Numbered from the stretch's first letter, positions 2,937 to 43,037 are shown. The stretch is DNA of 64,000 nucleotides from an uncultured Verrucomicrobiae bacterium (GCA_963755455.1 CAVWJH010000001.1:146864-210863); one strand, 5' to 3'. Translations and numbers: made by a program. Notes: generated from the sequence alone by a model not told the origin.

Positions 2937-3269
2937 ATGATTCGCAAAGAACTCGTCGCCGCCTCGGCTGAACCGTTGATTTTGTCGCTGCTCGCAAAGG
3001 GCGAGAGTTACGGTTACGCCATCATCCAGGAAGTCAAGGCGCGCTCGGACGGCAAATTGAACTGGACGGACGGGATGCTTTACCCAGTGCTGCACCGGAT
3101 GGAACATCGGGGCTTGATCAAATCACGCTGGGCGGAAAGCGAAACCGGGCGGAAGCGGAAATATTACTCGCTCAAAAAAGACGGCAAAACGGCGATGGCC
3201 AAACACCACGAACAATGGTCGCTGGTTCATTCCGTTTTGGCCGGATTGAAAAAGGAACAATATGTTTGA
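2937..3269 (+). CDS. PadR family transcriptional regulator
   Basis: LILSLLAKGESYGYAIIQEVKARSDGKLNWTDGMLYPVLHRMEHRGLIKSRW...GRKRKYYSLKKDG is a canonical PadR winged helix. Its stop overlaps the next ATG (ATGTTTGA). Confidence 0.9.
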   Translation: MIRKELVAASAEPLILSLLAKGESYGYAIIQEVKARSDGKLNWTDGMLYPVLHRMEHRGLIKSRWAESETGRKRKYYSLKKDGKTAMAKHHEQWSLVHSVLAGLKKEQYV

Positions 3270-3913
3270 CCTTGAAAAATCCATCGCGGACTGGCGAAAC
3301 CAAATGCTCGCCGCCGGAATCAAAACGCCCGTGCCGCTGGAAGAGTTGGAAATTCATCTGCGCGAAGAAATCGAGCGGCAAATGCAATCGGGGTTGAGTG
3401 CGCAACGGGCGTGCGACGTCGCCACCAGAAAAAATTGGCGGCGCATCCGAACTAAAAAAGGAATTCAAGAAAACAGCCGATCCGTTGGATATGTGGCTCG
3501 TGAAACGAATGGGAATCGCCTGTGGCGCCTTCTCGCTGTTATTTTCAATGTGGATCCTTTTTTTCCTTTTCACCGATGAAATAAGTTTCATCACGAAAAT
3601 CTGCGGCCTGGCCGCTGTTGCCGCCGCCGGATTAAGCTGGAGATACAGCCATACGTTTCTTCCGGTAATCCGTCGTCGGTGGATCCGGGCGGCGATCGGA
3701 GGACTGTGTTGTCTTGGCGGTATTGTTTGGATTCGGCTTTTTTGCATCCATTTAGCCCCCGATTTGCTGGTGCGGGCGTTCGAAACCGCCACCATGCGCG
3801 GTTGGTTTTTAGTTTTGTTTCTGTGGGCGTGGAGCGTGGTCGCCATGTTTGGCGGAATTGCATTTGGATTGGAAAAGGCCGCGCGCGGGAAAGACACCGT
3901 GACGGTTTCATAA
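3262..3913 (+). pseudogene. PadR-associated membrane protein (N-terminal MFDLEKSIADWRNQMLAAGIK helix plus multi-TM C-terminus); one frameshift at an A6 run near 3425
   Basis: ORF 3262.. and ORF 3398..3913 join as ...SAQRACDVATRK|IGGASELKKEFKK..., parallel to the intact paralog (AFEMAALQIGQADVLKTEFVK). The C-terminus is hydrophobic. Confidence 0.6.
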
Positions 3914-3924
3914 AACGAAACAAT

Positions 3925-4644
3925 ATGTTTGACCTTGAAAAATCCATCGCGGACTGGCGAAACCAAATGCTCGCCGCCGGAATCAAAACACCCGTGCCGC
4001 TGGAAGAGTTGGAAATTCATTTGCGCGAAAATATCGAGCAGCAGATGCAATCAGGCGCAAATGAGCAACGAGCTTTTGAAATGGCTGCCTTGCAAATTGG
4101 TCAAGCCGATGTCTTGAAAACGGAATTTGTAAAAGCTGGCGGAGAAATTCCCGAAAGATTGAAGCAGTTCTTTTTTACCCTCGCAGGCACTCCAAACTAT
4201 CAACTCGCTACTAATATGAATACGACCAATTCAAACATCGAACCGCGCTGGGCAACTTATGCCAAGGCTGGCACCTTCCTTTTTCCTACGGTTTTTCTAT
4301 GGCTTTTAACCGTTGTCTTTGTTTTGCCAAAGGCGAATGAAATTTGTTCAGTGGCGGGCACAACTGTTTTTAATTTTGCGCAGCCTGTTCCTGCCATATT
4401 AAGAGTTTGGGCTACAACTGGCCAGACCTTGGTTTTTCTAACGAGCCACGGTTTTTTAATCGGCGGCGCAATCGTCTTGGCGTTCATTTTGTTAGAACGG
4501 TATTTCAGCCAGTGGCCACGCTATCGCCGGACGGCAATTGGCATTGTGGTTTTTCTTTTGAACGCGGTCGTTCTTCTTTCGCTGACCCTGATGATTATTT
4601 CGATTCTCGACGCAGCGCCAGCTTTGTATCATCATGCCCATTAA
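3925..4644 (+). CDS. PadR-associated membrane protein, tandem paralog of 3262..3913
   Basis: ATG at 3925. The first ~100 nt are nearly identical to 3262-3360. The C-terminal half holds several hydrophobic segments (FLFPTVFLWLLTVVFVL, FLIGGAIVLAFILL, IGIVVFLLNAVVLLSLTLMIISIL). Confidence 0.65.
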   Translation: MFDLEKSIADWRNQMLAAGIKTPVPLEELEIHLRENIEQQMQSGANEQRAFEMAALQIGQADVLKTEFVKAGGEIPERLKQFFFTLAGTPNYQLATNMNTTNSNIEPRWATYAKAGTFLFPTVFLWLLTVVFVLPKANEICSVAGTTVFNFAQPVPAILRVWATTGQTLVFLTSHGFLIGGAIVLAFILLERYFSQWPRYRRTAIGIVVFLLNAVVLLSLTLMIISILDAAPALYHHAH

Positions 4645-4664
4645 CTGATGAAGGTTGACCGCGC

Positions 4665-4714
4665 GCCTCCAGAATTTTTTTCAATTCCTCCGCCGCCCTG
4701 CCGCCGAAACCGGC
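4665..4714. repeat. Degenerate duplicate of the uvrC 3' end (distal copy)
   Basis: Hand alignment with 5208-5257 gives 44/50 identical. The minus-strand translation AGFGGRAAEELKKILEAR compares with PGFGGKAAEELKKFLEARI* of the real uvrC. Confidence 0.7.
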
Positions 4715-4748
4715 TTGCGCAAAAGTGACAGCCGGTTAAACTTGTTCC

Positions 4749-4946
4749 ATGAGTTTTGAGCAGCTCAAACGCGAAGTGACGGCATTGAATGACCGCGAGC
4801 GGGCGGAGTTGATTCGCTACACGCTTCAACTACGTCACGAGCACGACGCGGAATATCGCCGCGAAGTCACCGAAAGTTTGAACGACCGCGACAAATCGCA
4901 CTGGCTCACGCCGGAAGAATTAGAGCGCCGCCTCGACAACAATTAA
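4749..4946 (+). CDS. Putative antitoxin (small helical addiction-module component)
   Basis: 65-aa ORF MSFEQLKREVTALNDRERAELIRYTLQL...LTPEELERRLDNN, 4 nt upstream of a RelE/ParE-like ORF. Confidence 0.5.
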   Translation: MSFEQLKREVTALNDRERAELIRYTLQLRHEHDAEYRREVTESLNDRDKSHWLTPEELERRLDNN

Positions 4947-4950
4947 GGCC

Positions 4951-5201
4951 ATGCGGCCTTATGCCATTTACATCAACGAAGCAGCGTCGAGTTTCGTGCC
5001 GCGTTACGGTTCGCAACGCGAAAGAGTGATGAATTTTGTCCGTTCGCTTGCCGAAAGTCCAAACACGTCCGGGGATTTTCAGAAAAGGACGCCGCCGGCC
5101 GGATTGTCCAGGTAAAAATCATTGGCCGTTATGCGGTGACGTTTTGGGCCGACCACGCCATTTCAGAAATCAAAGTGACGCACATCAAGCCAGCGGATTA
5201 A
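4951..5201 (+). pseudogene. RelE/ParE-superfamily-like toxin, one frameshift near 5085-5100
   Basis: MRPYAIYINEAASSFVPRYGSQRERVMNFVRSLAESPNTSGDFQ then, after a frame change, KDAAGRIVQVKIIGRYAVTFWADHAISEIKVTHIKPAD*. Absent from the ORF track because both halves are under 60 aa. Its stop overlaps the convergent uvrC stop. Confidence 0.45.
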
Positions 5202-6813
5202 ATCCGTGCCTCCAAAAACTTTTTCAATTCCTCCGCCGCCTTGCCGCCGAAGCCGGGCACTTCGGAGATTTGTTCAACCGTCGCCAGTTGCAATCGCCGC
5301 ACCGAGCCGAATTTTTTCAGCAACGCCGATTTGCGCCGCTCGCCGATGCCGGGAAATTCGTCCAGCACGCTCTCGGAAATCCGCTTGAGCCGCAACTGCG
5401 CGTTGTAGGAATTCGCCACGCGATGCGATTCGTCGCGGATGCGTTGCAACAATTTCACCGCCGGATGATCCAGTCCCAGCCGCAACGGTTCGCTTTTGCC
5501 CGGCAGATAAATTTCCTCAAATTCCTTGGCCAGCCCGATGACGGGAATTTTTTCGAGGCCGAGTTTTTCCAATTCAGCAACCGCCATGCCGAGCTGACCT
5601 TTGCCGCCGTCAATCAAAATCAAATCCGGCAGATTGGAATTGGCCGATGGAAATTGGGAAGTCTTGACCGGAATTCGCTGGCGAACTTTGCGGCTCGTTT
5701 CATTCAACGAGCGTTTGTAATTCCTCCGGCACAGCGTGACCGTCGTCGTCATTCTTTGTTTTTTGGGTTGGCGCGACGCTTTCATTCAGCAGCCGTGAAT
5801 AACGCCGCCGCACGACTTCCGCCATGCTCGCAAAATCGTCCTGGCCTTCGACGGTTTTGATTTTGAAGCGACGATAATTCGCGCGGTCGGGCCGGCCATT
5901 TTTGAAACTCACCAGCGACGCGACGGCGAACGTGCCGCTGATGTTGGAAATGTCAAAGCCTTCAATGCGCTGCGGCGGCGCCGGCAAATTCAGAACTTTC
6001 GCGAGTTGCGCCAAATCATTTTGCGGCTGGCACATTGCCCGGCAACGAATACGGAATGCGCGCAAATTTTTCCGTTTTCTTCCAAGTGTCTTTCAAGTCG
6101 CGAACCAAGTCGCGCAGGCTCGCGGCTTTTTCAAAATCCTGCGCCGCCGCCGCCTTTTTCATTTCGCCTTCGAGCTGTTCCTGCATTTCGCGGCATTGGC
6201 CTTCAAGAAAACCGCACGCGGCCTTGACCTGTTCGAGATATTGCTCGCGCGAAACATTTCCGACGCACGGCGCGGTGCAGTATTTCAGATGCGCGTAAAG
6301 GCAATGTTTGTAATCGCTCTCGCCCGGCGTGAACACGCGGCAGCCGCGCAGATTGAATTGCCGTTGCGCGAGCGTGACGACGTTCCGCGCCGCCGTCGCG
6401 TTGACGAACGGCCCGAAATAGCGCGCGCCGTCGTCTTTTTTGAAACGCGCAAAAGAAAAATTCGGGATCGGGTCGTTCAGATTCACTTTCAACATCAAAA
6501 ACCGTTTGTCGTCGCGGAAGCTGATGTTGTAGCGCGGCTTGAATTCCTTGATGAGTTTGCTTTCGAGCAGGAGCGCCTCGGGTTCGCTGCGGACGACGTG
6601 GAAATCGAAATCGTGAATCGCCTCGACGAGCGCGTTGAATTTCAAATCCCAGCCCATGCGCCGCGACGATTGAAAATACTGGCTGACGCGTTTGCGCAGA
6701 TTGAGCGCCTTGCCGACGTAAATGACCGTGCCGAAGCGGTCGCGGTGCAGATACACGCCCGGCTTGTGCGGCAACGCGCTGAATTTTTTGCGGATGGCTT
6801 CGGTCACAGGCAT
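5198..6813 (-). pseudogene. uvrC: Excinuclease ABC subunit C, two frame disruptions (near 6040 and 5760)
   Basis: GVYLHRDRFGTVIYVGKALNLRKRVSQYF (GIY-YIG), UVR-domain-like [43 protein letters not shown] and a C-terminal (HhH)2 GIGERRKSALLKKFGS...ISEVPGFGGKAAEEL. Confidence 0.9.
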
Positions 6814-6854
6814 GAAGAGAATTTCAACGCAAAGGCGCAAAGACGCAAAGGAAT

Positions 6855-7517
6855 TTATTCCGGCTTCTGGCTTCTGACTTCTGACTTCTGTTTCATGTGC
6901 CGGTGGACGAGGAAATAATACATTCCGCCGAAAACCAGCGCCGCGCCGCCGAGCCAGAGCGTGATGTGGTGTCCTTCGTCCTCGCCCATTTTCACGCCGA
7001 CATAGCAAAGCACGAAACACCAGATCACCGCGCCGAGCAGCGTGAAAATGGAAAACAGCCGGTAATCCATCCGCGTGATGCCGGTGGGAATGCCGACAAG
7101 CTGCCGCGCGCCGGGCAGCATCCGCGCAACGAGCACGCCCATCGCGCCGTAGTGCGACATCCACTGCTCGGCCTTTTCCAGTTTTTCCGGCGGAAACAAA
7201 ATAAATTTTCCGTAACGCAACACCAGCGGCCGTCCGGCGGCGCGCACCAGCCAATACATCGCCGATGCGCCGAGCCACGAACCGAACGCGCCCGCAATGA
7301 CGATGCCAATTTCAGCCGCCCAGCCGGAAAGATGAAGCTGAAAAATATTCAATCCATCCGTCCACGCCAGATGCGCGGCGGGCGGGATGATGAATTCGCT
7401 CGGCAGCGGCAGGAAGGAGCCTTCCAAAGCCATCAACAGCGCGACAAGCGCAAAGCCGCCGGTTTTGAGCGCGCCGAGATACCAGACGATGAGCGGCTGA
7501 AATAAATTTTTGAGCAT
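6855..7517 (-). CDS. DedA family membrane protein
   Basis: LMALEGSFLPLPSEFIIPPAA...YGKFILFPPEKLEKAEQWMSHYGAMGVLVARMLPGARQLVGIPTGITRM is a DedA/SNARE-associated signature. The last ~12 codons (KQKSEVRSQKPE) are encoded by a heptamer array. Confidence 0.85.
   Translation of the reverse strand: MLKNLFQPLIVWYLGALKTGGFALVALLMALEGSFLPLPSEFIIPPAAHLAWTDGLNIFQLHLSGWAAEIGIVIAGAFGSWLGASAMYWLVRAAGRPLVLRYGKFILFPPEKLEKAEQWMSHYGAMGVLVARMLPGARQLVGIPTGITRMDYRLFSIFTLLGAVIWCFVLCYVGVKMGEDEGHHITLWLGGAALVFGGMYYFLVHRHMKQKSEVRSQKPE
6859..6890. repeat. Heptanucleotide-periodic array (GGCTTCT/GACTTCT, about 4.5 units)
   Basis: ggcttctggcttctgacttctgacttctg. It is preceded at 6825-6855 by a REP-like caacgcaaaggcgcaaagacgcaaagg. 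Confidence 0.75.
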
Positions 7518-7528
7518 GAATTAAATTT

Positions 7529-7747
7529 TCATGCCGCAACTGGCGAAAGTAATGCCAATTCAGAATTTTCCAAAACGCGCCGGGTCAGATCACGAGTCAC
7601 GGACGGAAAACATTCGAGGAATTCGTCGAGCGTGTAATTGTTTTCCAGATACTCGAAGAGCGTCTTCACCGGCACGCGCGTGCCTTTGAACACCGGCGTC
7701 CCGCCGAGAATGTCCGAGTCAACCGTGATGAGGTCGTTCGACTTCAT
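7529..7747 (-). CDS. DUF433 domain protein (antitoxin-like), no partner ORF seen
   Basis: ITVDSDILGGTPVFKGTRVPVKTLFEYLENNYTLDEFLECFPSVTRD matches the DUF433 pattern. Confidence 0.8.
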   Translation of the reverse strand: MKSNDLITVDSDILGGTPVFKGTRVPVKTLFEYLENNYTLDEFLECFPSVTRDLTRRVLENSELALLSPVAA

Positions 7748-7749
7748 GC

Positions 7750-8330
7750 GAGGAATTTAACACATCTTGCCGCTGGCAGTAAATCTTCGATTCTTTGAAC
7801 CTGAAGGCTTGAACGCGCGCGGTTTGCTTGGAAATTTTTTTGGCCGGGCGCGCCGGCAAATTTGTGAAATCGCTGGCCGATACATGAAAACGATTTAGCC
7901 ACAGATGAAACACGGATTGAACACGGATTTTTGAAATCATTTTGCGATGGACGTTTGGGGCGATTGGCGGTTGAATTTTTTGTCGCGCGAAGGACGCGAA
8001 GGCGGCGAAGTCCGTAGGAGCGGAATCATCAGTGAAAGAATTAACGCAAAGACGCCAAGACGCAATGAGCGCAAAGCAAAAATTCCTTGCGACTTCGCGC
8101 CTTTGCGTCTTTGCGTTGAAAATTTCCCCGCCGAATATGCCGCCCCGACGGGGCTGAAATTTTATTTTGGTTTTGGTTCTACAAATATGCCGCGCCGACG
8201 GCGCTGGGGACGAACGCCGTGCCAAAATCATTTTGCGTTGGACGTTTGGGGGGAGCGCGCGCGTCTCGCGTGCGGATGCGGGCGTCGCGCCCGGAACATT
8301 GTTGGACAAATTAGTTTTGGGAACGGGTTC
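7750..8330. repeat. REP-rich intergenic region with at least four repeat families
   Basis: TTAGCCACAGATGAAACACGGATT (recurs at 23446). AATCATTTTGCG-TGGACGTTTGGGG at 7934 and 8224. Hairpin AACGCAAAGACGC.../...GCGTCTTTGCGTT at 8041-8117. AATATGCCGC-CCGACGG-GCTG at 8134 and 8184. GGGAGCGCGCGCGTCTCGCGTG (reverse copy near 52805). Confidence 0.55.
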
Positions 8331-8624
8331 ATGCTGCGTCAAGGCTGGGCGACGTTGGATTTCAAAGACGTGGAGGAACTGGCGCAATTGAAGAAGCTGC
8401 ATGAGACTTTGCAGAAGGAAATCGCGGCAATCACAGAATCGTTGAAGGAATTGCGCGCAAGTCCAGATTATGAACTTTGCCAGTTGGCGGAGCAGAAGCC
8501 GGGCATTTTAGACGAGCTTGCGGCGGAACGGACGAAGCAGCTTGAAGTTGAAAATGCGGAGTTGGAATTGCAGGCGGAACGGCTGGCGAAGGAGATCAAG
8601 CAATTGGACGGCAAGGTGGGTTAA
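8331..8624 (+). CDS. Hypothetical coiled-coil protein
   Basis: ATG at 8331. The 97-aa product (LKKLHETLQKEIAAITESLKELRA...LEVENAELELQAERLAKEIKQLDGK) is helical and charged. The part of the ORF upstream of the ATG is REP translation. Confidence 0.35.
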   Translation: MLRQGWATLDFKDVEELAQLKKLHETLQKEIAAITESLKELRASPDYELCQLAEQKPGILDELAAERTKQLEVENAELELQAERLAKEIKQLDGKVG

Positions 8625-8679
8625 TAATCGTTCGGGAATTCCCCAATCGCCAGCCAGGCACCGGAATGGCTGATTTTGA

Positions 8680-9000
8680 ACCCGGAACGTCAAAAATGGG
8701 CGGCAACAGCGTAAAATTTTGCGGAGGAACGGCTTGATTGCCGTTGGCCAGCCTAAAAACGGCGGTGCAATGCCCAAAAACACCGGGGGAAAGCGAAAAA
8801 TGGCCGGGGGAAATGGATAATTGCGCGGGGGAACACCAATTGTCCGGAGGGAAAGCGATAATTGGGCGGTGGAAATGGGAAATTGCCCGGGGGAAAGCGT
8901 CCGATGCGCGGGGGAACCGGATAATTGTGCGGGGAACGTCCCAAATCTGCGGGGGAAAAGGCGCGGTGGCGGGGGACAACCGGAAATCATCACGTCCAGC
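8680..9000. repeat. Degenerate tandem array, about 15-17 units of 20-22 bp (consensus roughly CGGGGGAAANNGNNAATTGNG)
   Basis: Units read by eye, e.g. cgggggaaagcgaaaaatggc / cgggggaaatggataattgcg / cgggggaacaccaattgtc / cggagggaaagcgataattggg / cggtggaaatgggaaattgcc / cgggggaaagcgtccgatgcg / cgggggaaccggataattgtg. Confidence 0.6.
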
Positions 9001-9053
9001 CACCGGAATGAAGCGGCATCCGCACGGGACATTCCGCTTTTACTTGAGAAAAT

Positions 9054-9125
9054 AATTCTGCTGCTTCTCGCTGACGGGCATTCCAAGTTTTTCCATCACG
9101 GCCAGCATATCTTCCAAGATTTTGC
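9054..9125. repeat. Degenerate duplicate of the udg 3' end (distal copy)
   Basis: Hand alignment with 9856-9927 gives 65/72 identical. The minus-strand frame gives [27 protein letters not shown], versus [28 protein letters not shown] in the real gene. Confidence 0.75.
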
Positions 9126-9197
9126 ACGAAGGCAAAAATAAAATCCGGCGCTGGAAATTCCATTCGCCAATCCCGCAAAAACGATTACATTGTTTCC

Positions 9198-9428
9198 ATG
9201 AGCTATCTCACGCTGGAAGTGGAGATTGACCACGGAAAAGTGGCCGCGAAAGAGCCGTCGAAACTGCCGGAAAAGGCCAGCGGCCTGCTCACAATTTTCC
9301 AGCCGGAAACTGCGGAGGCCGCCAGGTTCACGCCGCTCCAGGCGCTGGACGCCCTGCAAAAACATCTGCGCCTCGACGCCGCGCACGCCGCAGACTGGAT
9401 GGCGACCGTGCGCGAAGCGAGACGTTAG
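9198..9428 (+). CDS. Putative antitoxin paired with the downstream PIN toxin
   Basis: 76-aa ORF ending 20 nt upstream of a PIN-domain ORF. No family recognised. Confidence 0.5.
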   Translation: MSYLTLEVEIDHGKVAAKEPSKLPEKASGLLTIFQPETAEAARFTPLQALDALQKHLRLDAAHAADWMATVREARR

Positions 9429-9448
9429 CCGCGCGAAATGTTCGGAGC

Positions 9449-9820
9449 ATGATTCATTTCGACACTAATTGTCTGATTCAAACCGCCATCGCCGGATCGT
9501 TCGCGCATGAACGATTTCGCGCGTGGGCGTCTGCGCGGGAAAATTTCAACGTCAGTAGCGTCGCATGGGCGGAATTTTTGTGTGGGCCGCTGGATGCCAC
9601 CGCCGAATCCATCGCGCGGCAGATTTTTCCAAATCCCGAACCGCTGCTTCCGGCTGACGCCACGCTCGCGGCAAAATTATTCAACCAGACCGGACGCCGT
9701 TCCCGAAGTCTGGCGGATTGCATGATCGCGGCGGTGGCAATTCGTTGCGGCGCAAAACTGGCGACAATCAACGCGGCGGATTTTCAGCCGTTCGCCCAGC
9801 ATGGTTTGAATTTGGCTTGA
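9449..9820 (+). CDS. vapC: PIN domain toxin (VapC-like)
   Basis: [10 protein letters not shown]...[10 protein letters not shown]...[26 protein letters not shown] has the PIN acidic-residue pattern and the typical C-terminal motif. Confidence 0.8.
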
Positions 9821-9838
9821 GTCGCGGACGGTTTATTT

Positions 9839-10760
9839 TCACGCCTTCAAAAAGAAATTCCGCTGCTTCTCGCTGATGGGCATTTCGAGTTTTTCCATCA
9901 CGGCCAGCATGTCTTCCCAGACTTTGCGCTTCTCGCTCATCGCCTGGTTGCGCAGCAGATACGCCGGATGATACGTCGGCATGAGCGGCGTGCCGCGATA
10001 CGTCTGCCAGTTGCCGCGCAGCTTCGTGATGCCGACGGTCTTGCCAAGCAAACCTTCCACCGCCGTCGCGCCGAGCGCGACGAGAACTTTCGGGCCGGAT
10101 CAAATCAATCTGCTCGTGCAGATACGGAATGCACGTCGCCATTTCGTCGGGCGTCGGCTTGCGGTTGCCGGCGGACTGGCCGGGCGTGTCGGGCCGGCAT
10201 TTCAAAATGTTGGCGATGTAAACATCCGCGCGCGAAAGTCCGGTGGCCTGGATGATTTTCGTGAGCAATTGTCCGGCGCGGCCGACGAACGGTTCGCCCT
10301 GCTCGTCTTCATCCGCGCCCGGCGCTTCGCCGACGAACATCAGTTGCGCGTCAATGCTGCCGACGCCGAACACGACGTTCTTGCGCGACGACGCGAGGTG
10401 CGGGCATTTCACGCAGGACAAGGCGCGCTTTCGCAATTCGGCGAAGGCGGCGGCTTTTTCGGGCGAAGAACTGATGATTTGAGATTTGAGATTTTGAATT
10501 TCAGATGTTGGCGCGGTGGACGGAGGCGTGGCGGCGATTTTTTTTGCGGGCATGGAAATTGTGGTTTGAGTTTTAGAAGCGGGTGCGGCGGACGTTTTCT
10601 CAATTTCAGGTTTGAAATTTGAAATTTGAAATTTCGGCGCCGCCTGCGCAAGCGCGCGGAGCGTTTCTTTCGAGACGGCGACATTTCGCACGCCGCGCGA
10701 TTTCAATTCTTCGAGATGATGGATTGTCGCGTCGAGCAGTTCGTTGTAAGCAACGGCCAT
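9839..10760 (-). pseudogene. udg: Family 4 uracil-DNA glycosylase with a ~110-aa N-terminal extension; one frameshift near 10085
   Basis: [51 protein letters not shown]...ANILKCRP...IDLIRP then a frame change to ...[37 protein letters not shown]. Confidence 0.85.
10475..10636. repeat. Two heptamer-periodic arrays inside the udg N-terminal extension (10475-10506 and 10603-10636)
   Basis: gatttgagatttgagattttgaatttcag and aatttcaggtttgaaatttgaaatttgaaatttcg, translated in frame as [11 protein letters not shown] and [13 protein letters not shown]. Confidence 0.75.
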
Positions 10761-12024: not shown

Positions 12025-13459
12025 TCACGGTTTCGACGGCAATTCTGGTTTATCGCCGCCGATTTGCGTGCGGAACTGCGGCAGGCTTTGCGGATGATGC
12101 TGCTGGATGTAGGCGATGAGTTTCTCACGGATGTCGCAGCGCAAGTCCCACGATTTCGAGGAATCTCGCCGAAGTGGCCAGCACGCGGATTTGCATGGTT
12201 TTTTCCGTGGCGTCGGTCACCTGCAGGTTCCAAAAGCGTTTGTCCCAAAGCGGATTTGGCTCGATGATTTCCTTGAGCGCCTTTCGGATTTCATCCAGCG
12301 GCATCGTGTAGTCCACCCACACAAACACCGAGCCGAGCAACTGCGCGGAGGCGCGCGTCCAGTTTTGAAACGGCTTTTCGATGAAGTAGCTCAGCGGAAT
12401 GATGAGCCGGCGGTCGTCCCAAATGTGAAGGGTCACATAAGTCAGCGAGATTTCCTCAATGCGTCCCCATTCGCCCTCGACGATGACGACATCGTCCAGG
12501 CGGATGGGCTGGGTCATGGCGAGCTGGAAGCCGGCGAAGAGATTGGCAATCGTTTTTTGCGCGGCGAATCCGAGGATGACGCCCACCACGCCGGCGGACG
12601 CGAGCAGGCTGGTTCCCAACCGCCGCACTTCCTCGAACAGCATCAGGATGGAAGCGATGGTGAAGAGGGCGATGACGGCGTAAAGCACCTTGCTGATGAC
12701 GTGGACCTGGGTGTAAATCTTGCGGGCCTGGAGATTGTCGGACGCCTTGATGTCGTATTCCGTGAGGACGGCTTTTTCGCCGAGGCTTACGGCCTGAAAC
12801 AGGATGACCGACACTGCGACGATCAGCAGGATGCTGGTGCCTCTGGCAAGGACGTCCGTGTATTCCGGCGGCAGGTTGAGAATGGGCAGCGCAAAAATAA
12901 TTCCCACGACCGGCACGATGACGCGCAGGCTTTTTCCAATCAGCGGCACGAACAAATCGTCCAGCTTGCTGCTGGTTTTGGCGGCCAAAGCCGCAAGCCG
13001 CGCCTCCAGCACGCGGGTGAACCGGAAGAACAGCCAGAACAGCACCGCGAAAACACCGAGATCAAACACCTTGTCAAAACCCGCCCGCACAGCGTCCAAT
13101 CCCTCGTCCGGCGGAATTTTCAGCAGCAGCGGCGTCGCGGCCAGATAGATGCCGTAAATCCAGATCAGTGCATACAGCGGCTTGCCGAGCGCGCCGAAGA
13201 CGTGGCGGTGCAGTTCCTTGCCGGCGGTCACCGTGGCCTGCCGCGTTTTGCGCCGCAGAAATGCGACGGCCAGACCGTTGACGAGCAGAACAAACAGCAC
13301 GAGGAACAAGACCGTTCCCAAGTCCGCCCAGGTGACGTCGCCAAGAACAGCGGCGTTGACGCCGGGGCCGAACAGGGTTTCCAGTCCGCTTGAAATGAGC
13401 GCGGTCAAGCCGGCGAAGAGCGGGTCCAGATAATTTTTTCCTGTCATCGTTGCATCCAT
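12025..13459 (-). pseudogene. Mechanosensitive ion channel (MscS family), one frameshift near 12160
   Basis: GVVGVILGFAAQKTIANLFAGFQLAMTQPIRLDDVVIVEGEWGRIEEISLTYVTLHIWDDRRLIIPLSYF. After VLATSA the frame changes to DSSKSWDLRCDIREKLIAYIQQHHPQSLPQFR..., the usual family C-terminus, with stop at 12025-12027. Confidence 0.8.
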
Positions 13460-14233: not shown

Positions 14234-15088
14234 TCACTGCGTCTTTCCCGCCGGTAATTCAACCACCATTCCCTCCTTCGCGGCGTCCACTTTCATTTTT
14301 GACTTCGCCTTCGCCACGAGTTTGCGCGCGTGCTTCACAAAGCCGTCAATTTTTTTGTCGTCGCTGTCGGGGTCGTGGTGAAAGAACAGCAGTTTTTTCA
14401 CGTTCGCCTTTAGCGCGAGCGCCACGGAATCGTCCACGCAGCCGTGCCCCCAGCCGATGTGTTTTTTGTATCCCGCCCGGTCGAATTGCGAGTCGAGGAT
14501 GAGCAGGTCGGAGTCGCGGACGAACTCGGCCATTTCCCGGTCCACGCCGCCGATGTGCGGCTCGGTGTCGGGGAAAAACGAGACGATGCCGTCGGGCGAA
14601 AACAGCCGGTAGCCGACGCACATTCCCGGATGGTTCGCGCGCAGCGCCCGCACGATGACCGGGCCGATGTCGAAGTTGAAGTCCTTGAGTTCCTCGATCT
14701 GGATGTTGCTCGGCAGCCTGTCGAACGCCACGGGAAAATAGGTGCTTTCCATCTGGCCGGTGAGCATGGCGGACAATCCCTTGCGCGCGTCCTGGCAGCC
14801 GATGATCCTCAACCGGCAGCGCGGATCGTAAATCGGCGGAAAAAACGGCAGCCCCTGGATGTGATCCCAATGCGTGTGCGTCAGCAGCATCGTCAGGTTC
14901 AGCGGCTTGTTCCTGTATGTCTTCAGCAGCGCGGCACCAAGCTGCCGCAATCCCGTGCCGGCATCCAGGATGATGATCTCGCCGCCCGCGCGGATTTCGA
15001 CGCAGGTCGTGTTGCCGCCGTAACGCACCGTGCCCGGCCCCGGCGTGGAGATCGAGCCGCGCACGCCCCAAAATTTAACGCGCATCAC
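14234..15088 (-). CDS. MBL-fold metallo-hydrolase
   Basis: VKFWGVRGS...ILDAGTG...LLTHTHWDHIQGLPFF...FFHHDPDSDD (HxHxDH motif). Confidence 0.85.
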   Translation of the reverse strand: MMRVKFWGVRGSISTPGPGTVRYGGNTTCVEIRAGGEIIILDAGTGLRQLGAALLKTYRNKPLNLTMLLTHTHWDHIQGLPFFPPIYDPRCRLRIIGCQDARKGLSAMLTGQMESTYFPVAFDRLPSNIQIEELKDFNFDIGPVIVRALRANHPGMCVGYRLFSPDGIVSFFPDTEPHIGGVDREMAEFVRDSDLLILDSQFDRAGYKKHIGWGHGCVDDSVALALKANVKKLLFFHHDPDSDDKKIDGFVKHARKLVAKAKSKMKVDAAKEGMVVELPAGKTQ

Positions 15089-16822: not shown

Positions 16823-17605
16823 TTAATTCTGTGCAAATTTGATTATCTTTCGCTGAAAATCTTCCGTTGCATCCAGCGATGAAACCATCTCTCCACCCAC
16901 GTTTGATAGTCGTGCTAAATCTGTGCGGGGAATCACTTGTTGATCCTGAAATATGAGGAGCGAATCAAATTCCACCTTTGCACGCAGCCAATGCTCCAAA
17001 ATGATAGTTACGAGACGCGCTTTGTCACGGGTTGCAACGCCAAATAAAAACAAGGGCGCACGCTTGGCTTCGACTCGGAAATCAATTGGATAACTGTCAG
17101 CTTCCGCGTGATCCGGCAGAGTGTAGTCTTGTTTGATTTTTTCCGGGGCAACCAAACTATAAAGTCTCTCTTTCAAATCTTCGTAAAAAGTGCTCGCCAC
17201 CCATGAGCGATTCAAAAATGTCAGATCATAAATTCGCGCCAGAGCTTGACCAAACTGAAGAACATTCGTGCCTAAACTATCTAGGCTAGAGTCGAGGACA
17301 AGCCTGCCTTGTTCGTCCCGCAAACCTGAATCAGCCAAAACTTGATCCAATAATTTTCCACGAGTGCCTTCGCGAAATTTGGCGAGATCGTTTTCATAAC
17401 TCAAGTGCATGAAAGTGTGTCCAAAATCAGTAAGACGAACACTTCCTGCTGCCGCTTCTTCAAGATAAAGCTGAAACGTATCACCGTCAGGAAATGTAAA
17501 TGGGGTTACGATTTGCAGATAACCTTGGCGCGTGGTTCGCACTTGAACCTCGCCGCAAAGCGACTTGCACAGCCGCTCTTTTAATTTGGGCAGGTCAAAA
17601 GTCAT
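16823..17605 (-). CDS. Uncharacterised 260-aa protein (from memory resembles the DUF1828/DUF1829 architecture; needs an HMM check)
   Basis: Intact ORF. The N-terminus reads ...LQIVTPFTFPDGDTFQLYLEEAAAGSVRLTDFGHTFMHL. Its ATG overlaps the upstream stop (ATGA at 17602-17605). GC is lower than the flanks. Confidence 0.6.
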   Translation of the reverse strand: MTFDLPKLKERLCKSLCGEVQVRTTRQGYLQIVTPFTFPDGDTFQLYLEEAAAGSVRLTDFGHTFMHLSYENDLAKFREGTRGKLLDQVLADSGLRDEQGRLVLDSSLDSLGTNVLQFGQALARIYDLTFLNRSWVASTFYEDLKERLYSLVAPEKIKQDYTLPDHAEADSYPIDFRVEAKRAPLFLFGVATRDKARLVTIILEHWLRAKVEFDSLLIFQDQQVIPRTDLARLSNVGGEMVSSLDATEDFQRKIIKFAQN

Positions 17606-18123
17606 TGGAATAGTTCTGGATGATCAGGTTCTGCTTCGAGACCTGCAATGTTGCAATCTGCCATCAAGCGATGCAATGCGCCGCTACACGTTTGATAAGA
17701 ACCGGCAGCTTCGGCAAAGCCGTCAGGCTTCCTATTCGCTTGGATGTATCGCTCGGTTGTCCGATGAATATGGCAAACGAATTCAAGACGGATGCCTTCG
17801 AGTCGGTTTGGGTGACTGTGACTCGAACCGTTGTAACGCGCTAAAATCAATTCTTCGCCGCCAGCGGGCAACCACTGGAGGCCACAAGAAAAATCATCAC
17901 TAATTGTTTTGTTCTGTCGCACAAACAAACGAAACCGTTCGCTACCATCCAAACTTTCGACAATATACTCATGTTTGTCATGGTTCGCATCTGTGACATT
18001 TCTCGCAGTGGGATTTGAGACGCGCTTGGGCATGAGCAAAAGTTGCCCGATGCGCTCGTCTGTTAAAGATTCAAAAGCCATAACGCGATGACGGAGCGTA
18101 ACTAACTCATCCCGCACGGACAA
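17602..18123 (-). CDS. Uncharacterised 173-aa protein, first gene of a two-gene low-GC module
   Basis: Intact ORF with His-rich motifs ARYNGSSHSHPN and FVCHIHRTTERY. No family recognised. Confidence 0.6.
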   Translation of the reverse strand: MSVRDELVTLRHRVMAFESLTDERIGQLLLMPKRVSNPTARNVTDANHDKHEYIVESLDGSERFRLFVRQNKTISDDFSCGLQWLPAGGEELILARYNGSSHSHPNRLEGIRLEFVCHIHRTTERYIQANRKPDGFAEAAGSYQTCSGALHRLMADCNIAGLEAEPDHPELFQ

Positions 18124-19553: not shown

Positions 19554-19640
19554 CCAGTCCAACAGTCCAAAGTCCAATGTCCAAAGTCGGCGCAGGTTGT
19601 TGACTTTGGACTTTAGACTTTGGACTTTAGACTTTAGACT
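19554..19640. repeat. Heptamer-periodic hairpin (AGTCCAA units / GACTTTG-GACTTTA units) in a divergent promoter region
   Basis: Left arm cagtccaacagtccaaagtccaatgtccaaagtc and right arm gactttggactttagactttggactttagactttagactt. It lies between the VOC start (19540, minus) and the nusB start (19647, plus). Confidence 0.85.
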
Positions 19641-21037: not shown

Positions 21038-21953
21038 ATGGGACTTTTTGCCAAATTCAAAGCCGGCCTCGCCAAGACGCACGCCAAGCTCACGCACGAA
21101 ATCAAGCGCATCGTCACGCGCTCGCCCAAGCTGACCGCCGAGTCGCTGGAAGAAATCGAGCACGCGCTCATCGCCGCCGATCTGGGCATGGCGATGACCA
21201 CGCAAATCATCGCCGCCGTCAAGAAAGCTTACGAAACGCAGGGCGCGCGGGACTGGACTATCTCGCCATCGCGCGCGCGGAAATTGAGAAAAGTCTTTCC
21301 GCGAACAAACCCGAAGTCTGCGCGAAATTCCCGGCGGCACCTGCGTCGTTTCCATCGTCGGCGTGAACGGCACGGGCAAGACCACGACGAGCGCGAAGCT
21401 CGCGCATTATTTTCAGGCGCAGAAAAAATCCGTGCTGCTCGCCGCGTGCGACACGTTTCGCGCGGCGGCGATTGAGCAGATCAAATTGTGGGGCACGCGC
21501 CTCAAAGTCGAAGTCATCGCCGGCAGCTTACGGCGCGGACGCGGCGTCCGTGGCGCACGACGCCGTCACCGCCGCGCAGGCGCGCAAGGCGGATTATCTG
21601 TTCATTGACACGGCGGGACGCTTGCACACGAAGCACAATTTGATGCAGGAATTGCAGAAGTTGCATCGCGTCATCGGCAAGCAACTCGCGGGCGCGCCGC
21701 ACGAAGTGCTGCTGGTGCTCGACGCGCAGCGACCGGCATGAACGCGCTGAACCAGGCGCGCGAATTTCACAAGGCCGTGCCGCTCACCGGCCTCATCGTG
21801 ACCAAGCTCGACGGCACGAGCAAAGGCGGCATGGTCGTGGCGATTCAGAAGGAACTCGGCCTGCCCATCAAATTCATCGGCCTCGGCGAGCAGCCGGACG
21901 ATTTGCAGCCCTTCGACGCGAAACAATTCGCGCAGGCGTTGTTTGAGGAATGA
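21038..21953 (+). pseudogene. ftsY: Signal recognition particle receptor FtsY, 4 frame disruptions
   Basis: MGLFAKFKAGLAKT...LEEIEHALIAADLGM / [19 protein letters not shown]...[15 protein letters not shown] / [16 protein letters not shown] / TGLIVTKLDGTSKGG...IKFIGLGE. Confidence 0.85.
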
Positions 21954-22027
21954 AATTATTCACTTAATACCAAGGCACAAAGATTGTAGAAACATGGGTT
22001 TTCCTTTATCACAAAAGAGAAATAATT

Positions 22028-23385
22028 ATGTTCAAACACCTAACCCGGCCTGGGCTGATCACATTGTTGGCGTCCGTGTCATTTTCCGCGACCAGTTTTG
22101 GGGCGAATCCCTTCATCACCAGCATTTACACCGCCGATCCGTCCGCTCATGTGTGGGCGGATGGCCGGCTGTATGTCTATCCCTCGCGCGACATGGATCC
22201 GCCACGCGGCTGCGACCTGATGGACCGGTATCATGTGTTCTCAACGGACAACATGGTGGATTGGCGGGACGAAGGGGAAATTCTACGGGCGAGCCAGGTG
22301 CTCGTGGGGCAGGCCGGAAGGCGGTTTCATGTGGGCGCCGGATTGCGCGTATCGCGACGGAACATATTATTATTATTTCCCGCATCCGAGCGACACGAAA
22401 TGGAACGACTCCTGGAAAATTGGCGTGGCGACGAGCGAAAAGCCGGCGAGCGATTTCAAAGCCGGCGGTTACATCGAAGGCCTTGGCGGTTTCGCGATGA
22501 TTGATCCGGCGGTGTTCATGGATGACGACGGCCACGCTTATATTTATTTCGGCGGCGGCGGCCATTGCGCGGGCGTGAAATTGAAACCGGACATGACGGA
22601 AATTGGACGGAACGGTCCAGCCGATGACCGGCCTGGAGGATTTTCACGAAGCCACCTGGGTTTTCAAACGCAACGGCATTTATTACCTGACTTACGCGGA
22701 CAATCATCCTCGACACAACGAGATGCGCTATGCCACCAGCACCAACGCGCTCGGTCCGTGGACCTACAAGGGAGTCTATCTGGAAGGGACCGACTGCGAC
22801 ACCACGCACGGCTCCGTGGTGGAATACAAAGGTCAATGGTATCAGTTCTATCACAACTGCAGCATTTCCAGGCAGGGCAATCTGCGTTCGATATGCGTGG
22901 ATAAAATAAATTTCAATGATGACGGGACAATACAGATGATCGTGCAAACCAAGACCGGCGTGCCGTCCGTCGGCCCGGCTCCGGTGCCCAATCCGAACAC
23001 GGTCAAATATGTGGCCGGGAATGCCAGCGTCACCAATGGTGCGACCATCGAAAGCGACAGCGCGGCCTCCAGCGGCAAGAGCGTGCAGAATCTCAATTTC
23101 ACCAATTCCTGTTTGCAGTTTGACAATGTGGACGGCGGCGAAAATGGCGGCCGGGCCACGATTGACATCTATTACGCCACCGCCGAAAAGTCCGAGCTCA
23201 GGTTGAGCGTGAACGACGCCGATTATTCGTTCATCAACACGCTTTCCACCGGCGGCTGGACCAATTACACCGGCCATTCGTATCTGACCGTTCCATTGAA
23301 CTCCGGCAAAGCCAACACCATCAAGCTCACCGGCGGCCACGGCGGGGTCAACGTGGATTACATCACCGTCAGCCCGCTGCCGTGA
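22028..23385 (+). pseudogene. Secreted glycoside hydrolase family 43-like enzyme with C-terminal CBM6/35-like domain, 2 frame disruptions
   Basis: Signal peptide, then NPFITSIYTADPSAHVWADGRLYVYPSRD, WAPDCAYRDGTYYYYF, IDPAVFMDDDGHAYIYFGG, HEATWVFKRNGIYYLTYA and HGSVVEYKGQWYQFYH. The C-terminus reads ...GGWTNYTGHSYLTVPLNSGKANTIKLTG...VDYITV. Confidence 0.8.
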
Positions 23386-23401
23386 CGCGCTGCCGGCCGG
23401 C

Positions 23402-23445
23402 GCGAAGCAATTTGCGCAGGCGTTGTTTGAGGAATAAAAATTATT
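23402..23445. repeat. Duplicate of the ftsY 3' end (distal copy)
   Basis: gcgaagcaatttgcgcaggcgttgtttgaggaataaaaattatt versus 21918-21960 gcgaaacaattcgcgcaggcgttgtttgaggaatgaaattatt. It still reads AKQFAQALFEE*. The two coding differences seen are synonymous, and the stop codon differs (TGA vs TAA). Confidence 0.7.
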
Positions 23446-23686: not shown

Positions 23687-24841
23687 GTGGCAAAAAAAGA
23701 TTTCCAATTCATGCGGCTCGCCCTCCGGCTCGCCCGGCGCGGCTATGGCGCAACGTCACCGAATCCGATGGTCGGCGCGGTGCTGGTGAAAGGCGGAAAA
23801 ATCATCGGGCGCGGCTGGCATCGGCGCGCGGGTTTGCCGCACGCGGAAATCGAGGCGCTCCGCGACGCGCAAAAGCGCGGCCACAATCCGCGCGGCGCGA
23901 CGCTTTACGTCACGCTCGAACCGTGCTGCACGCACGGCCGCACGCCGCCTTGCACGGACGCCATCATTGCCGCCGGAATAAAAAAAGTTGTCGTTGGCGC
24001 GACTGATCCGAATCCGAAACACGCAGGCAAAGGGTTTAAGATTTTGCAGCGCGCGGGAATTGAAGTCGTTCACGGAATTTTGGGCGGCGAATGCGCGAAG
24101 CTGAACGAGGCTTTCAATCACTGGATTGTCCACCGCACGCCGTTCGTCACCGTGAAGGCAGCAATGACATTGGACGGCAAAATTGCGACGGCCAGTGGCG
24201 AATCCAAATGGATCACCGGCGAAAAAGCCCGCGCGCAAGGAATGAAATTGCGGCAGGGCGCGGACGCGATTCTCGTCGGCGTGAATACAATTTTGGCGGA
24301 CGACCCGTCGTTGACGTTTCGGCCAGTCCAAAGCCCGAAGTCCAAAGTCCAAAGCCGGAAGCCGGTTCGACGAATTATTTTGGATTCAATGGCGCGGACG
24401 CCGTTAAACGCAAAAGTCGTCAGCGATGAATTTCCGGCGCTGACGACAATTGTTGTCGGCGAACGCGCGCCGAAAAAGCGCGTGGCAACATTGGCGAAAC
24501 TGACAAATGTTCTTGTTGCACCTACAACGAAAAACTTGTCACTTGTCACTCGTCACTCGTCACTCGATTTGCGCTGGCTGTTGGAAAAACTCGGTTCGGA
24601 AAACGTGACGAGCCTGCTGGTCGAAGGCGGCGGCGAGGTGAACGCGTCGTTTCTGCTCGGCGGTTTTGCGCAGCGCGTCGCATTTTTCTATGCGCCGAAA
24701 ATTCTGGGCGCACGCGACTCGCGAAAAGCCGTCGCGGGCGAAGGCGTGAAAGATCCGACTGACGCGATTCAATTGCGCGAAGTCGAATGGCGTCAGCTTG
24801 GCGAGGATTTGCTGCTGACGGCGTTGGTGGTTGCAAGTTGA
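23687..24841 (+). CDS. ribD: Bifunctional riboflavin biosynthesis protein RibD (pyrimidine deaminase / uracil reductase)
   Basis: MRLALRLARRGYGATSPNPMVGAVLV...HAEIEAL...TLEPCCTHGRTPPC (CMP/dCMP deaminase zinc site), then ...VTVKAAMTLDGKIAT...GESKWITG...ILVGVNTILADDPSLT...LLVEGGG. Start is GTG 23687 or ATG 23711. Confidence 0.9.
   Translation: MAKKDFQFMRLALRLARRGYGATSPNPMVGAVLVKGGKIIGRGWHRRAGLPHAEIEALRDAQKRGHNPRGATLYVTLEPCCTHGRTPPCTDAIIAAGIKKVVVGATDPNPKHAGKGFKILQRAGIEVVHGILGGECAKLNEAFNHWIVHRTPFVTVKAAMTLDGKIATASGESKWITGEKARAQGMKLRQGADAILVGVNTILADDPSLTFRPVQSPKSKVQSRKPVRRIILDSMARTPLNAKVVSDEFPALTTIVVGERAPKKRVATLAKLTNVLVAPTTKNLSLVTRHSSLDLRWLLEKLGSENVTSLLVEGGGEVNASFLLGGFAQRVAFFYAPKILGARDSRKAVAGEGVKDPTDAIQLREVEWRQLGEDLLLTALVVAS
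24325..24365. repeat. In-frame heptamer array inside ribD (AGTCCAA/AGCCCGA/AGCCGGA, about 6 units)
   Basis: agtccaaagcccgaagtccaaagtccaaagccggaagccgg encodes PVQSPKSKVQSRKP between LTFR and VRRIILDS. Confidence 0.8.
24535..24567. repeat. In-frame heptamer array inside ribD (CTTGTCA/CTCGTCA, about 5 units)
   Basis: cttgtcacttgtcactcgtcactcgtcactcga encodes NLSLVTRHSS just before LDLRWLLEKLG. The heptamer family matches the pilin-associated hairpins. Confidence 0.8.
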
Positions 24842-26741: not shown

Positions 26742-26846
26742 TTCCTCCAGTTCCAGTTCACAATTTAACAATTTAACGCTCCCCGCACCGATGGATTTTC
26801 ATTTTCACACCTTGCGAAATGTCCGTTTCGGGTTCATGCTTTAGCC

Positions 26847-42259: not shown

Positions 42260-42269
42260 TTATATGAAA

Positions 42270-42299
42270 AGTGACAAGTGGCGAGTGACAAGTGGCGAG
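42270..42299. repeat. Heptamer array (GTGACAA/GTGGCGA) upstream of the first pseudopilin
   Basis: agtgacaagtggcgagtgacaagtggcgag. Confidence 0.75.
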
Positions 42300-42302
42300 A
42301 AA

Positions 42303-43011: not shown

Positions 43012-43037
43012 AAATTTTTATGCGCGACGATAAAAAA

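Follow-up and report, generated by a model that had tools for sequence, protein, structure and literature searches.

We analysed a stretch of 64,000 nucleotides (nt) of DNA (GCA_963755455.1 CAVWJH010000001.1:146864-210863; hereafter the window) from an uncultured Limisphaerales bacterium (Verrucomicrobiota), whose nearest relatives come mostly from peat, bog and soil metagenomes. At the 3' end of its uvrC gene lies a small cassette resembling a toxin-antitoxin (TA) operon, bracketed by two copies of the last codons of uvrC, and the same layout was found around other cargo at the 3' ends of udg and ftsY (Table 1). Repeats were detected with blastn by comparing the window with itself. The loci or contigs of related bacteria that were compared with the window carry L-numbers (L089, L164 etc.).

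An earlier sequence-only reading of the window had matched positions 4665-4714 to 5208-5257, the 3' end of uvrC, and both alignment (44/50 positions identical) and blastn (4662-4713 vs 5205-5256, 88.5% identity over 52 nt, E=1.4e-11) bear this match out. Common to the two uvrC copies is a 21-mer core, TTTTTCAATTCCTCCGCCGCC, with 2 occurrences in 64 kb where 0 are expected. The copy proximal to the gene body is the genuine uvrC end and reads VPGFGGKAAEELKKFLEARI*, and the distal copy translates on the minus strand to AGFGGRAAEELKKILEAR, in a frame that continues without a stop. Being 79-92% identical to the uvrC ends of dozens of relatives (47/52 positions for those of L085 and L103) and 92% identical to relic 2 of locus L164, the distal copy is a genuine displaced uvrC end, as had been proposed, and a non-functional fossil, or relic, of the original last 18 codons. 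The differences between the two copies are substitutions, unlike the indel errors typical of the assembly. Just two genes, both on the plus strand (4749-4946 and 4951-5201), occupy the DNA between the copies, and the list of open reading frames (ORFs) agrees with the earlier description of a two-gene cassette that exactly fills this space and whose toxin stop overlaps the uvrC stop.

Table 1. Duplicated gene ends in the window and the genes lying between and beside them
Feature	Position	Strand	Remarks
Membrane-protein gene, left flank	3679..4644	+	PadR-linked paralogue; stop 4642-4644; converges on the old uvrC end
Distal uvrC 3'-end relic	4661..4714	-	18 codons, AGFGGRAAEELKKILEAR; no stop at the homologous place
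Upstream element of the putative TA operon	4715..4748	+	cTTGCGCaa ... TAAACT, 7 nt before ATG; directly abuts the relic
Antitoxin-like gene, 65 aa	4749..4946	+	Intact ORF
Predicted RelE/ParE-fold toxin gene, ~83 aa once repaired	4951..5201	+	Stop 5199-5201 overlaps the uvrC stop 5198-5200
uvrC	5198..6813	-	Start 6813; ORFs 5198-5785, 5700-6065, 6016-7278; working repeat copy 5205-5256
Distal udg 3'-end relic	9043..9125	-	27 residues; continuous with ancestral downstream DNA
Second cassette	9198..9820	+	Antitoxin-like gene 9198-9428 and PIN-domain VapC 9449-9820, between udg relic and working end
Working udg 3' end, proximal copy	9845..9927	-	Tail FFLKA*; udg = 9839-10760
Working ftsY 3' end, proximal copy	21914..21960	+	Covers the stop and ~7 nt beyond
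Third insert, GH43 glycoside hydrolase with CBM35 module	22028..23385	+	Pfam Glyco_hydro_43, CBM_35_2; frameshifted
Distal ftsY 3'-end relic	23398..23445	+	FAQALFEE*

The gene pair at the uvrC end and its occurrence in relatives

Homologues of the antitoxin-like protein numbered 193, nearly all of them 65 aa long. The antitoxin and toxin families, with about 190 members each, were always adjacent, the toxin partner gene (83-85 aa) always following the antitoxin gene at a distance of 4-7 nt in all contexts. The motif cTTGCGCaa-N17-TAAACT upstream of the pair is kept in 7 homologous cassettes from three genomic contexts and is, judging from this conservation, probably a promoter/operator; a simple scan for the sigma-70 consensus did not flag it. 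In the window a run of T within the toxin ORF (5076-5079, T4) has lost 1 nt, which interrupts the reading frame; five intact homologues have T5 there. Apparent frameshifts also split the DEAD helicase gene (795-2800), uvrC (5198-6813), udg (9839-10760), ftsY (21038-21953) and the GH43 gene (22028-23385), which probably reflects an indel-prone long-read assembly and not mass pseudogenisation. The reading frame of uvrC is broken twice in the assembly; the gene is 84% identical to uvrC of L089 over 1.6 kb, in an alignment too divergent to place these frameshifts in or out of homopolymers, and its assignment is supported also by udg-dedA-uvrC synteny in relatives.

Sequence-profile searches of Pfam, NCBIfam and PDB returned no family for the uvrC-side pair. 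An AlphaFold2 model of the toxin family, built from its database homologues, reached a predicted local distance difference test (pLDDT) score of 80.6, and in a Foldseek search against PDB its top 20 matches were all RelE/ParE toxins, the best with a template-modelling (TM) score of 0.75 to 1wmi_A (P. horikoshii RelE). Foldseek probabilities were 0.82-1.00 (at least 0.94 for the top 17) at modest E-values of ~7e-3. The toxin label RelE-like, given to the pair from its sequence, thus holds for the modelled fold but not for the family databases, since Pfam and NCBIfam recognise neither protein. We regard the pair as a putative type II TA operon with predicted toxin-antitoxin activity. The cassette had no match in plasmid, phage and IMG/VR viral-contig collections. 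The absence of an integrase or transposase, likewise noted before, was confirmed in and beside the cassettes at uvrC, udg and ftsY by inspection of ORFs and Pfam searches of selected ORFs in the window up to ~41 kb; the neighbours of the cassettes are housekeeping or ordinary accessory genes.

The relatives share a conserved backbone of the order udg - dedA - uvrC - [variable] - 1-5 paralogous membrane-protein genes - PadR - DEAD helicase. A search of 80 related uvrC loci for a second, downstream copy of the uvrC end found none, and the informative relatives came instead from the genomic contexts of the antitoxin and toxin homologues. Window positions 4662-5492 align without a break to L175 at 82.8% identity, and likewise to L176. 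The whole block of relic, TA pair and uvrC is present in L164 and L165, and L166 holds the relic-TA part alone. Two more contigs have the same gene order of membrane genes, antitoxin, toxin and uvrC. L167 and L168 contain the relic-TA part without an adjacent uvrC body, the TA pair lying between two uvrC relics (3909-3952 and 4467-4510 in L167). In L164 the order is uvrC, TA pair, a 44-nt relic, a gene of 440 aa, a 141-nt relic that still encodes ...GFGGKAAEELKKFLEARS..., and then the ortholog (228 aa) of the left-flank membrane gene, which adjoins this relic 2; the repeats of this series lie at 1083-1256, 2651-2694 and 3207-3257. In the window, the left-flank membrane gene itself (3679..4644) had no match in a Pfam search. 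Relics in series show that additions occurred repeatedly at one gene end.

Relics of different lineages are identical to each other at 33-36 of 44 positions and to the conserved true ends at 36-40 of 44, so that relic-to-relic distances approximate the sum of the distances to the true ends. Such additivity is expected of orthologous relics that decay independently, and the 88% identity of the uvrC pair therefore mainly measures age. The uvrC insertion is old and common to several lineages, with a homologous relic-to-promoter junction in the window, L164, L167 and L175. Concerted evolution of relic and true end, with substitutions shared within a lineage, was considered and dropped because the distance matrix is simply additive. 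The left part and the tail of the window relic resemble the outer relic of L164 (92%, 40/44), and its right junction is that of the inner relic, which fits a loss of the intervening gene in the window lineage through recombination between relics.

The idea that the cassette is an addition was supported at uvrC at the level of gene order, since L087 and other relatives have uvrC beside the membrane genes with no TA pair; an empty site at nucleotide level was not obtained here because the left flank is too variable to align. A comparison of uvrC alleles was likewise indistinct as to origin, both window copies being identical to many lineages at 44-50 of 52 positions. The extreme uvrC end is also a hotspot of change in its own right, with the residues after ...LEAR varying in nearly every one of 80 relatives. 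In L093, which has the TA pair and no relic, the uvrC tail is lengthened on a (GCGGAAT)x4 tandem repeat (3668-3710).

Duplicated ends at udg, ftsY and other genes

The layout of gene body, proximal end, cargo and decayed distal end had been said to recur at udg and ftsY. It does so at both, with a VapBC cassette at udg (VapC recognised by Pfam PIN, E=1.4e-10), but the ftsY insert is no TA pair and holds a GH43 gene with a CBM35 module. The identity of the copy pairs is slightly lower than the 88-93% first given, at 87-90% (udg, 9043-9125 vs 9845-9927, 86.7% over 83 nt; ftsY, 21914-21960 vs 23398-23445, 89.6% over 48 nt).

The udg cassette is absent from 19 of 19 related loci containing udg. 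In L089, positions 840-1292 align with the window udg at 89% and positions 1220-1699 with window positions 9115-8638 at 83%, so that a single udg end is contiguous with the DNA that lies beyond the window's relic. L089 is the nucleotide-level empty site for this case, from which the window differs by the cassette and one copy of the 83-nt segment, and the proposed search for an empty site thus succeeded at nucleotide level for udg and at gene-order level for uvrC. L081, an independent contig of 1.6 kb, is 100% identical to the window over 8246-9865, a stretch that spans relic and cassette and reaches into the first part of the proximal copy.

The two udg copies further differ as alleles. The relic ends ...AATTATTTTCTCAAGTAA (YFLK*) and is followed by downstream DNA as in L089. 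The working copy has the ending ...AATTTCTTTTTGAAGGCGTGA (FFLKA*) and agrees with L112 in all of its last 22 nt (22/22), with L121 and L107 being close. The L112-type tail and the tail shared by the relic and L089 are several substitutions and a 3-nt indel apart. Substitutions together with a codon-sized indel that converge on an existing allele are unlike the decay of identical copies, which argues that the working udg end was imported from outside and that the relic keeps the resident allele. The suggestion that a replacement end arrives with the cassette therefore gains support at udg, whereas the uvrC pair is uninformative. The remaining halves of the two udg copies carry no allele information, and a sliding-identity comparison of udg with L089, L111, L112 and others located no upstream crossover, the region above the repeat being too conserved. 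Between dedA and the udg relic the window contains ~1.5 kb of extra DNA (7520-9040), where most relatives have udg directly beside dedA. This DNA holds a DUF433 gene (7529-7747), a 30-nt direct repeat (7934-7963 / 8225-8254, 93%), a coiled-coil ORF and a G-rich repeat with a 21-nt period (8740-8934) that is also found in L089.

At ftsY, 41 nt through the stop codon (CGACGCGAAA...GAGGAATGAA) are identical in L173, as read by eye from the sequences. L173 carries other cargo at the same ftsY-ribD junction, namely a DUF2971 gene and a ParE-type pair, and this junction is an insertion hotspot. No nucleotide-level empty site was found for ftsY among these loci, L173 having different cargo and L174 not being syntenic.

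Gene 3' termini had been named as the target, but duplicated 5' ends were found as well. The TA family of the uvrC cassette also occurs in the ribBA-ribH interval, where the first ~20 codons of ribH are duplicated and enclose it. This duplication comprises at least 31 nt at 90% identity in L162/L163 (L162 3898-3928 / 4465-4495) and 53 nt at 94% in L177-L181 (L177 3107-3159 / 3811-3863). Two further 5' segments, with gene identities assigned by reading of the sequence, are duplicated around other pairs, that of ruvX around a UPF0175/DUF3368 pair (L023 12093-12135 / 12953-12995) and that of dprA around a MazE-type antitoxin and a PIN-like protein (L148 11385-11440 / 12374-12429). In L023 the start codon of the relic seems fused to the antitoxin ORF. 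The phenomenon is thus neither TA-specific, given the GH43 gene at ftsY, nor 3'-specific, given the 5' ends of ribH, ruvX and dprA.

Overall, duplications were 31-141 nt long with copies 84-97% identical, and affected at least 7 unrelated target sequences (the 3' ends of uvrC, udg and ftsY, the 5' ends of ribH, ruvX and dprA, and intergenic sites). None among ~12 candidate pairs was 100% identical, the best reaching 94-97%. In all five TA cassettes with duplications the relic comes first, followed by antitoxin, toxin and the intact gene end, an agreement with a two-sided p of ~0.06 if each event was independent. Further direct repeats (38-115 nt) bracket a GNAT gene upstream of an xerC-like gene in L099 (9970-10028 / 10631-10687), a gene of 1273 aa in L009 (6024-6138 / 10153-10267) and a gene of 497 aa between udg and dedA in L134 (1140-1177 / 2792-2829); the last candidate is ambiguous because several relatives have kept, upstream of dedA, a palindromic element to which its 38-nt repeat belongs.

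The window contained 32 direct and 0 inverted repeat pairs at one set of thresholds, and 50-mer pairs with at least 44 matches at a spacing of 300-1600 nt formed 6 clusters, against 0 in each of 5 shuffles. In 1.78 Mb of other Verrucomicrobia loci we counted 37 direct and 9 inverted pairs of a similar size class, many of the direct ones being tandem paralogues. The G+C content of the cassettes (0.53-0.57) equals that of the window (0.56), and the donors are therefore probably relatives. An MBL-fold gene (14234-15088), used as an anchor, placed the window in a Limisphaerales clade, but synteny was lost beyond that gene.

Possible routes of insertion

For the origin of these footprints we favour, with our confidence evenly divided, an additive integration that is driven by homology and needs no integrase, the incoming DNA being probably circularised and carrying a gene end together with a cassette. 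The donor would be DNA of a related cell containing a gene terminus plus a cassette, which recombines with the resident gene terminus. At uvrC, the TA operon with its upstream element, antitoxin and toxin would have arrived together with a fresh uvrC end, so that the resident end came to lie beyond the cassette, cut off from its gene. If a circularised fragment recombined by one crossover (Campbell-type), the insert would be left between two direct copies of the homology segment; in a sibling variant, one-sided homologous recombination would be combined with an illegitimate join, similar to homology-facilitated illegitimate recombination (HFIR). Selection on the gene would afterwards preserve the proximal copy while the distal one decays, further cassettes added at the working end would leave relics in series, and recombination between relics could delete cassettes. 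The recombination mechanism, the circularisation and the direction of transfer are what we infer here.

Campbell-type integration predicts the donor allele on the element side of the proximal copy and the resident allele on the chromosome side of the distal copy. The tails of the udg pair, foreign in the proximal and resident in the distal copy, agree with this; the other halves of the two udg copies and the uvrC pair give no allele information. Unrelated targets, variable duplication lengths and host-like G+C, together with the lack of inverted repeats, of recombinase genes in or beside the cassettes and of plasmid, phage or viral matches, argue against a site-specific system and against transposition. 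Duplications flanking an insert are also the product of single crossovers in laboratory insertion-duplication mutagenesis. When DNA with a single homology arm entered E. coli, a duplication of 109-950 bp of that arm was found in 56 of 60 integrants and attributed to a single crossover with a re-circularised molecule, and the 4 HFIR clones carried deletions (PMC3240628). On this precedent we prefer a single crossover of Campbell type, with HFIR as its sibling variant. The integrants of that assay resemble our loci in having an insert flanked by the duplicated homology segment, a duplication length set by the arm, no site-specific recombinase and reversibility, but the arms were 109-950 bp long and identical (E. 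coli lacZ; PMC3240628), whereas the repeats here measure 31-141 nt at 84-97% identity.

Several points weigh against integration by such a crossover. At 31-52 nt and ~90% identity, the arms lie close to the limit of what RecA recombines efficiently, or below it, and a threshold of ~30 bp has been cited for E. coli (PMC2884548). We observed no donor, circular form or excision product in the material compared. The model requires that a gene end and a cassette were adjacent in the first place, which it leaves unexplained itself, and the entry of circular double-stranded DNA into these cells would be an added assumption. The allele argument comes from a single locus, udg, whose two alleles could also stem from a later allelic replacement, given a donor with the same cassette. 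Cassette copies without a detectable relic occur in L093, L169 and L171. Finally, the two uvrC copies are as distant from each other as from the uvrC ends of other lineages (46-47/52), and the uvrC case alone can therefore not separate an imported end from in-situ duplication and decay.

It is unlikely, in our view, that the cassettes entered a widely staggered break (tens of nt) whose fill-in duplicated the target in situ, with the copies diverging later. Such a break was put forward to explain the published insertion with long target duplication, whose footprint is the same as that seen here; the class was reportedly described for restriction-modification gene complexes by Nobusato et al. 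(2000, Gene 259:99). Its examples in Helicobacter, Haemophilus, Neisseria, Microcystis and others are restriction-modification units recognised by a single-copy target in a related genome, variable direct repeats >30 bp and no mobility genes; some repeats overlap a gene 3' end, and the mechanism has not been established experimentally (Furuta, Abe & Kobayashi 2010, PMC2853133). Our loci share with that class an addiction-type unit, no other mobile element and direct repeats >30 bp on a single-copy target. They comprise an empty site (udg, L089), direct repeats of 52, 83 and 48 nt (both udg copies aligning to the single L089 end and both uvrC copies to the uvrC ends of relatives), and inserts of 0.49, 0.72 and 1.44 kb (<20 kb) that hold only TA or GH43 genes, and the core 21-mer is not dispersed in the 64-kb window of the 794-kb contig. 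The cargo, however, is a RelE/ParE-fold TA pair, VapBC or GH43 and in no case a restriction-modification unit. The host is an uncultured Limisphaerales bacterium, the duplicated segments come from the coding ends, 5' as well as 3', of housekeeping genes, relics occur in series, and the two udg copies are different alleles.

Decay from identical copies could account for the uvrC and ftsY cases, the uvrC relic distances being additive and the proximal ftsY copy equalling L173 where the relic differs at 4-5 sites. The geometry shared by five of five TA cassettes also fits a fill-in event. A fill-in duplication would, however, start with two identical copies, so that the allele difference at udg (22/22 to L112 in the working tail, an L089-type relic tail and an indel between them) counts for import; explaining it by fill-in would take another recombination event, with a donor that has the same cassette. 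The imported allele, together with 0 of ~12 candidate pairs being 100% identical, argues against simple staggered-break fill-in. RelE and PIN toxins are RNases and provide no DNA-breaking activity, unlike restriction enzymes, so the idea of DNA breakage by the cargo is not transferable from restriction-modification units.

HFIR of linear transforming DNA as the sole route, from a donor whose cassette already adjoined the same gene, with a homologous end inside the gene and an illegitimate joint a few dozen bases upstream of the resident gene's end, appears distinctly unlikely. The imported allele in the proximal udg tail fits such an event, and a relic-free arrangement of donor type exists in L093, where uvrC and the TA pair occur without a distal copy. 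Displacement of gene ends is reportedly known from Rhs and contact-dependent inhibition (CDI) loci (Jackson et al. 2009). HFIR has been invoked for the sequential displacement in type VI secretion system (T6SS) effector-immunity and Rhs arrays (PMC5361080), and for T6SS effector-immunity arrays an integrase-free, homology-anchored mechanism was proposed (Kirchberger et al. 2017, PMC5361080). As in our loci, modules of these systems bring a replacement 3' part and push the old end downstream, which gives rise to arrays of orphan relics (PMC5361080). There, however, the displaced part is a functional toxin domain and the retained immunity gene is selected, whereas here 16-47 housekeeping codons without evident function are displaced and the cargo is unrelated to the target gene. 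HFIR is defined by 3-10 bp of microhomology at the illegitimate joint, usually with a deletion of recipient DNA (PMC3240628). Its products generally carry a deletion of similar size (reviewed in PMC3240628), but our cases carry duplications, and the illegitimate joint would have to land repeatedly within the last 30-140 nt of the paired gene.

The sequence-only reading had pointed to a site-specific or trans-mobilised route. On such a route each cassette would be, or would be the remnant of, an integrative element with an attP that mimics the gene end, integrated by a tyrosine or serine recombinase acting in trans or since deleted, as with cis-mobilisable elements (CIMEs) and tandem accretion at att sites. 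Direct repeats of a gene 3' end with a replacement end are indeed the classic attL/attR footprint, relics in series resemble tandem accretion, both uvrC copies contain an identical 21-nt core, and the relic-to-promoter junction is conserved across lineages. Elements such as ICESt1/ICESt3 at fda and islands at tRNA genes integrate site-specifically at gene 3' ends and likewise carry a replacement end between repeats of the target gene end, with tandem arrays possible. They differ from our loci, where no integrase was seen, where the unrelated targets (at least 7) share no sequence and hence no common att core, where duplications vary from 31 to 141 nt and where inserts are single operons. At just 0.45-1.4 kb and tight against the gene ends, such inserts would seldom be what remains when larger islands repeatedly lose internal DNA. 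One TA family uses two different targets, and neither a recombinase in or beside any cassette nor a match in the plasmid, phage and viral-contig collections was seen, so that a site-specific route is not indicated and is, in our judgement, very unlikely.

Integrons offer another comparison, since TA cassettes are common in chromosomal integrons (PMC2654758). Integron cassettes resemble ours as small, promoter-containing TA units whose arrays grow at one end with older units pushed back; ours are bounded by a copy of the host gene end and not by a cassette-borne site. No attC-like inverted repeats (0 in the window at the thresholds used) and neither an IntI integrase nor an attI site near the cassettes were seen. 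Hallmarks of transposons were equally lacking around the cassettes, with no terminal inverted repeats or transposase seen and with duplications of 31-141 nt that are not short and of fixed length.

We give a negligible probability to an artefact of the assembly, to similarity by chance and to a dispersed repeat that has nothing to do with uvrC. The many apparent frameshifts do limit the base-level quality of the assembly, but the blastn E-value of 1.4e-11, a core found in only two places of the window, a relic matching the uvrC ends of dozens of relatives and the same relic-TA-uvrC block in independent assemblies from other samples (L175/L176, L164/L165) refute this explanation.

Homology-driven integration, the reading that we prefer, can be extended to a self-propagating system. 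Under this rather unlikely extension, small addiction cassettes in Limisphaerales would spread without an integrase, with the first or last 30-140 nt of a conserved gene of the host acting as an attachment site that travels with them. Recombination between a relic and the working end would loop out a circle consisting of the cassette and one hybrid repeat. Host homologous recombination would then take this circle back into that gene end, or into a relic, whether in the genome it came from or in that of a relative. If true, arrays similar to those of integrons would exist at uvrC and ribH without a dedicated recombinase, and the constant geometry of relic, antitoxin, toxin and intact gene end would be a property of the unit.

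An undescribed insertion route, as had been suggested from the sequence, need not be assumed, given that the footprint has been published for restriction-modification genes (PMC2853133) and that the duplication product is known experimentally (PMC3240628). New are the TA and glycosidase cargo, the phylum, the use of housekeeping termini at 3' and 5' ends, the serial uvrC relics and the occurrence of the two copies as different alleles. How chromosomal TA modules move outside plasmids, phages, integrons and transposons is poorly understood, and the loci described here offer a recurrent footprint of such movement, with duplicated termini, serial relics, an empty site and two alleles in one pair. 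They carry a 25-year-old observation on restriction-modification genes over to an uncultured phylum and to addiction modules of a second class. The footprint is countable across metagenome-assembled genomes, and the relics, as fossils that can be dated, preserve the sequence in which genes were gained at core-gene boundaries. The relics are also potential substrates for cassette loss or amplification, and can mislead gene callers and assemblers.

Further repeats and accessory units in the window

After PadR, two membrane-protein genes in tandem have a 134-nt 5' segment in common (95.5% identity; 3249-3410 / 3912-4073, core 3256-3389 / 3919-4052), which includes the last bases of padR, and their 3' parts differ. 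This duplication could have arisen through the additive process proposed for the cassettes, here at a 5' segment that is conserved. Other probable accessory units, none with flanking repeats, lie at 16823-18123, 26769-27544 and 27714-28961. They are a DUF1828 and DUF6978 pair with low third-position G+C, a possible pair of an antitoxin and a DUF3368 (PIN-like) protein that was assigned by eye, with Pfam not confirming it, and a TPR-repeat gene (recognised by eye), also with low third-position G+C.

Other repeats were scattered over the window. A GTGACAAGTGGC-type repeat occurs upstream of several prepilin-like genes (42267-42311, 43030-43079, 47205-47268, 48153-48202) and may be a shared regulatory element. 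At 52385-52718 a 21-nt unit is repeated in tandem ~11 times. A short AGTCCAAAG-type repeat is scattered between genes (19557-19586, 24325-24354, 61450-61479), and a repeat related to it seems, by eye, to give KSEVRSQK-like tails on several ORFs of the window and of relatives.

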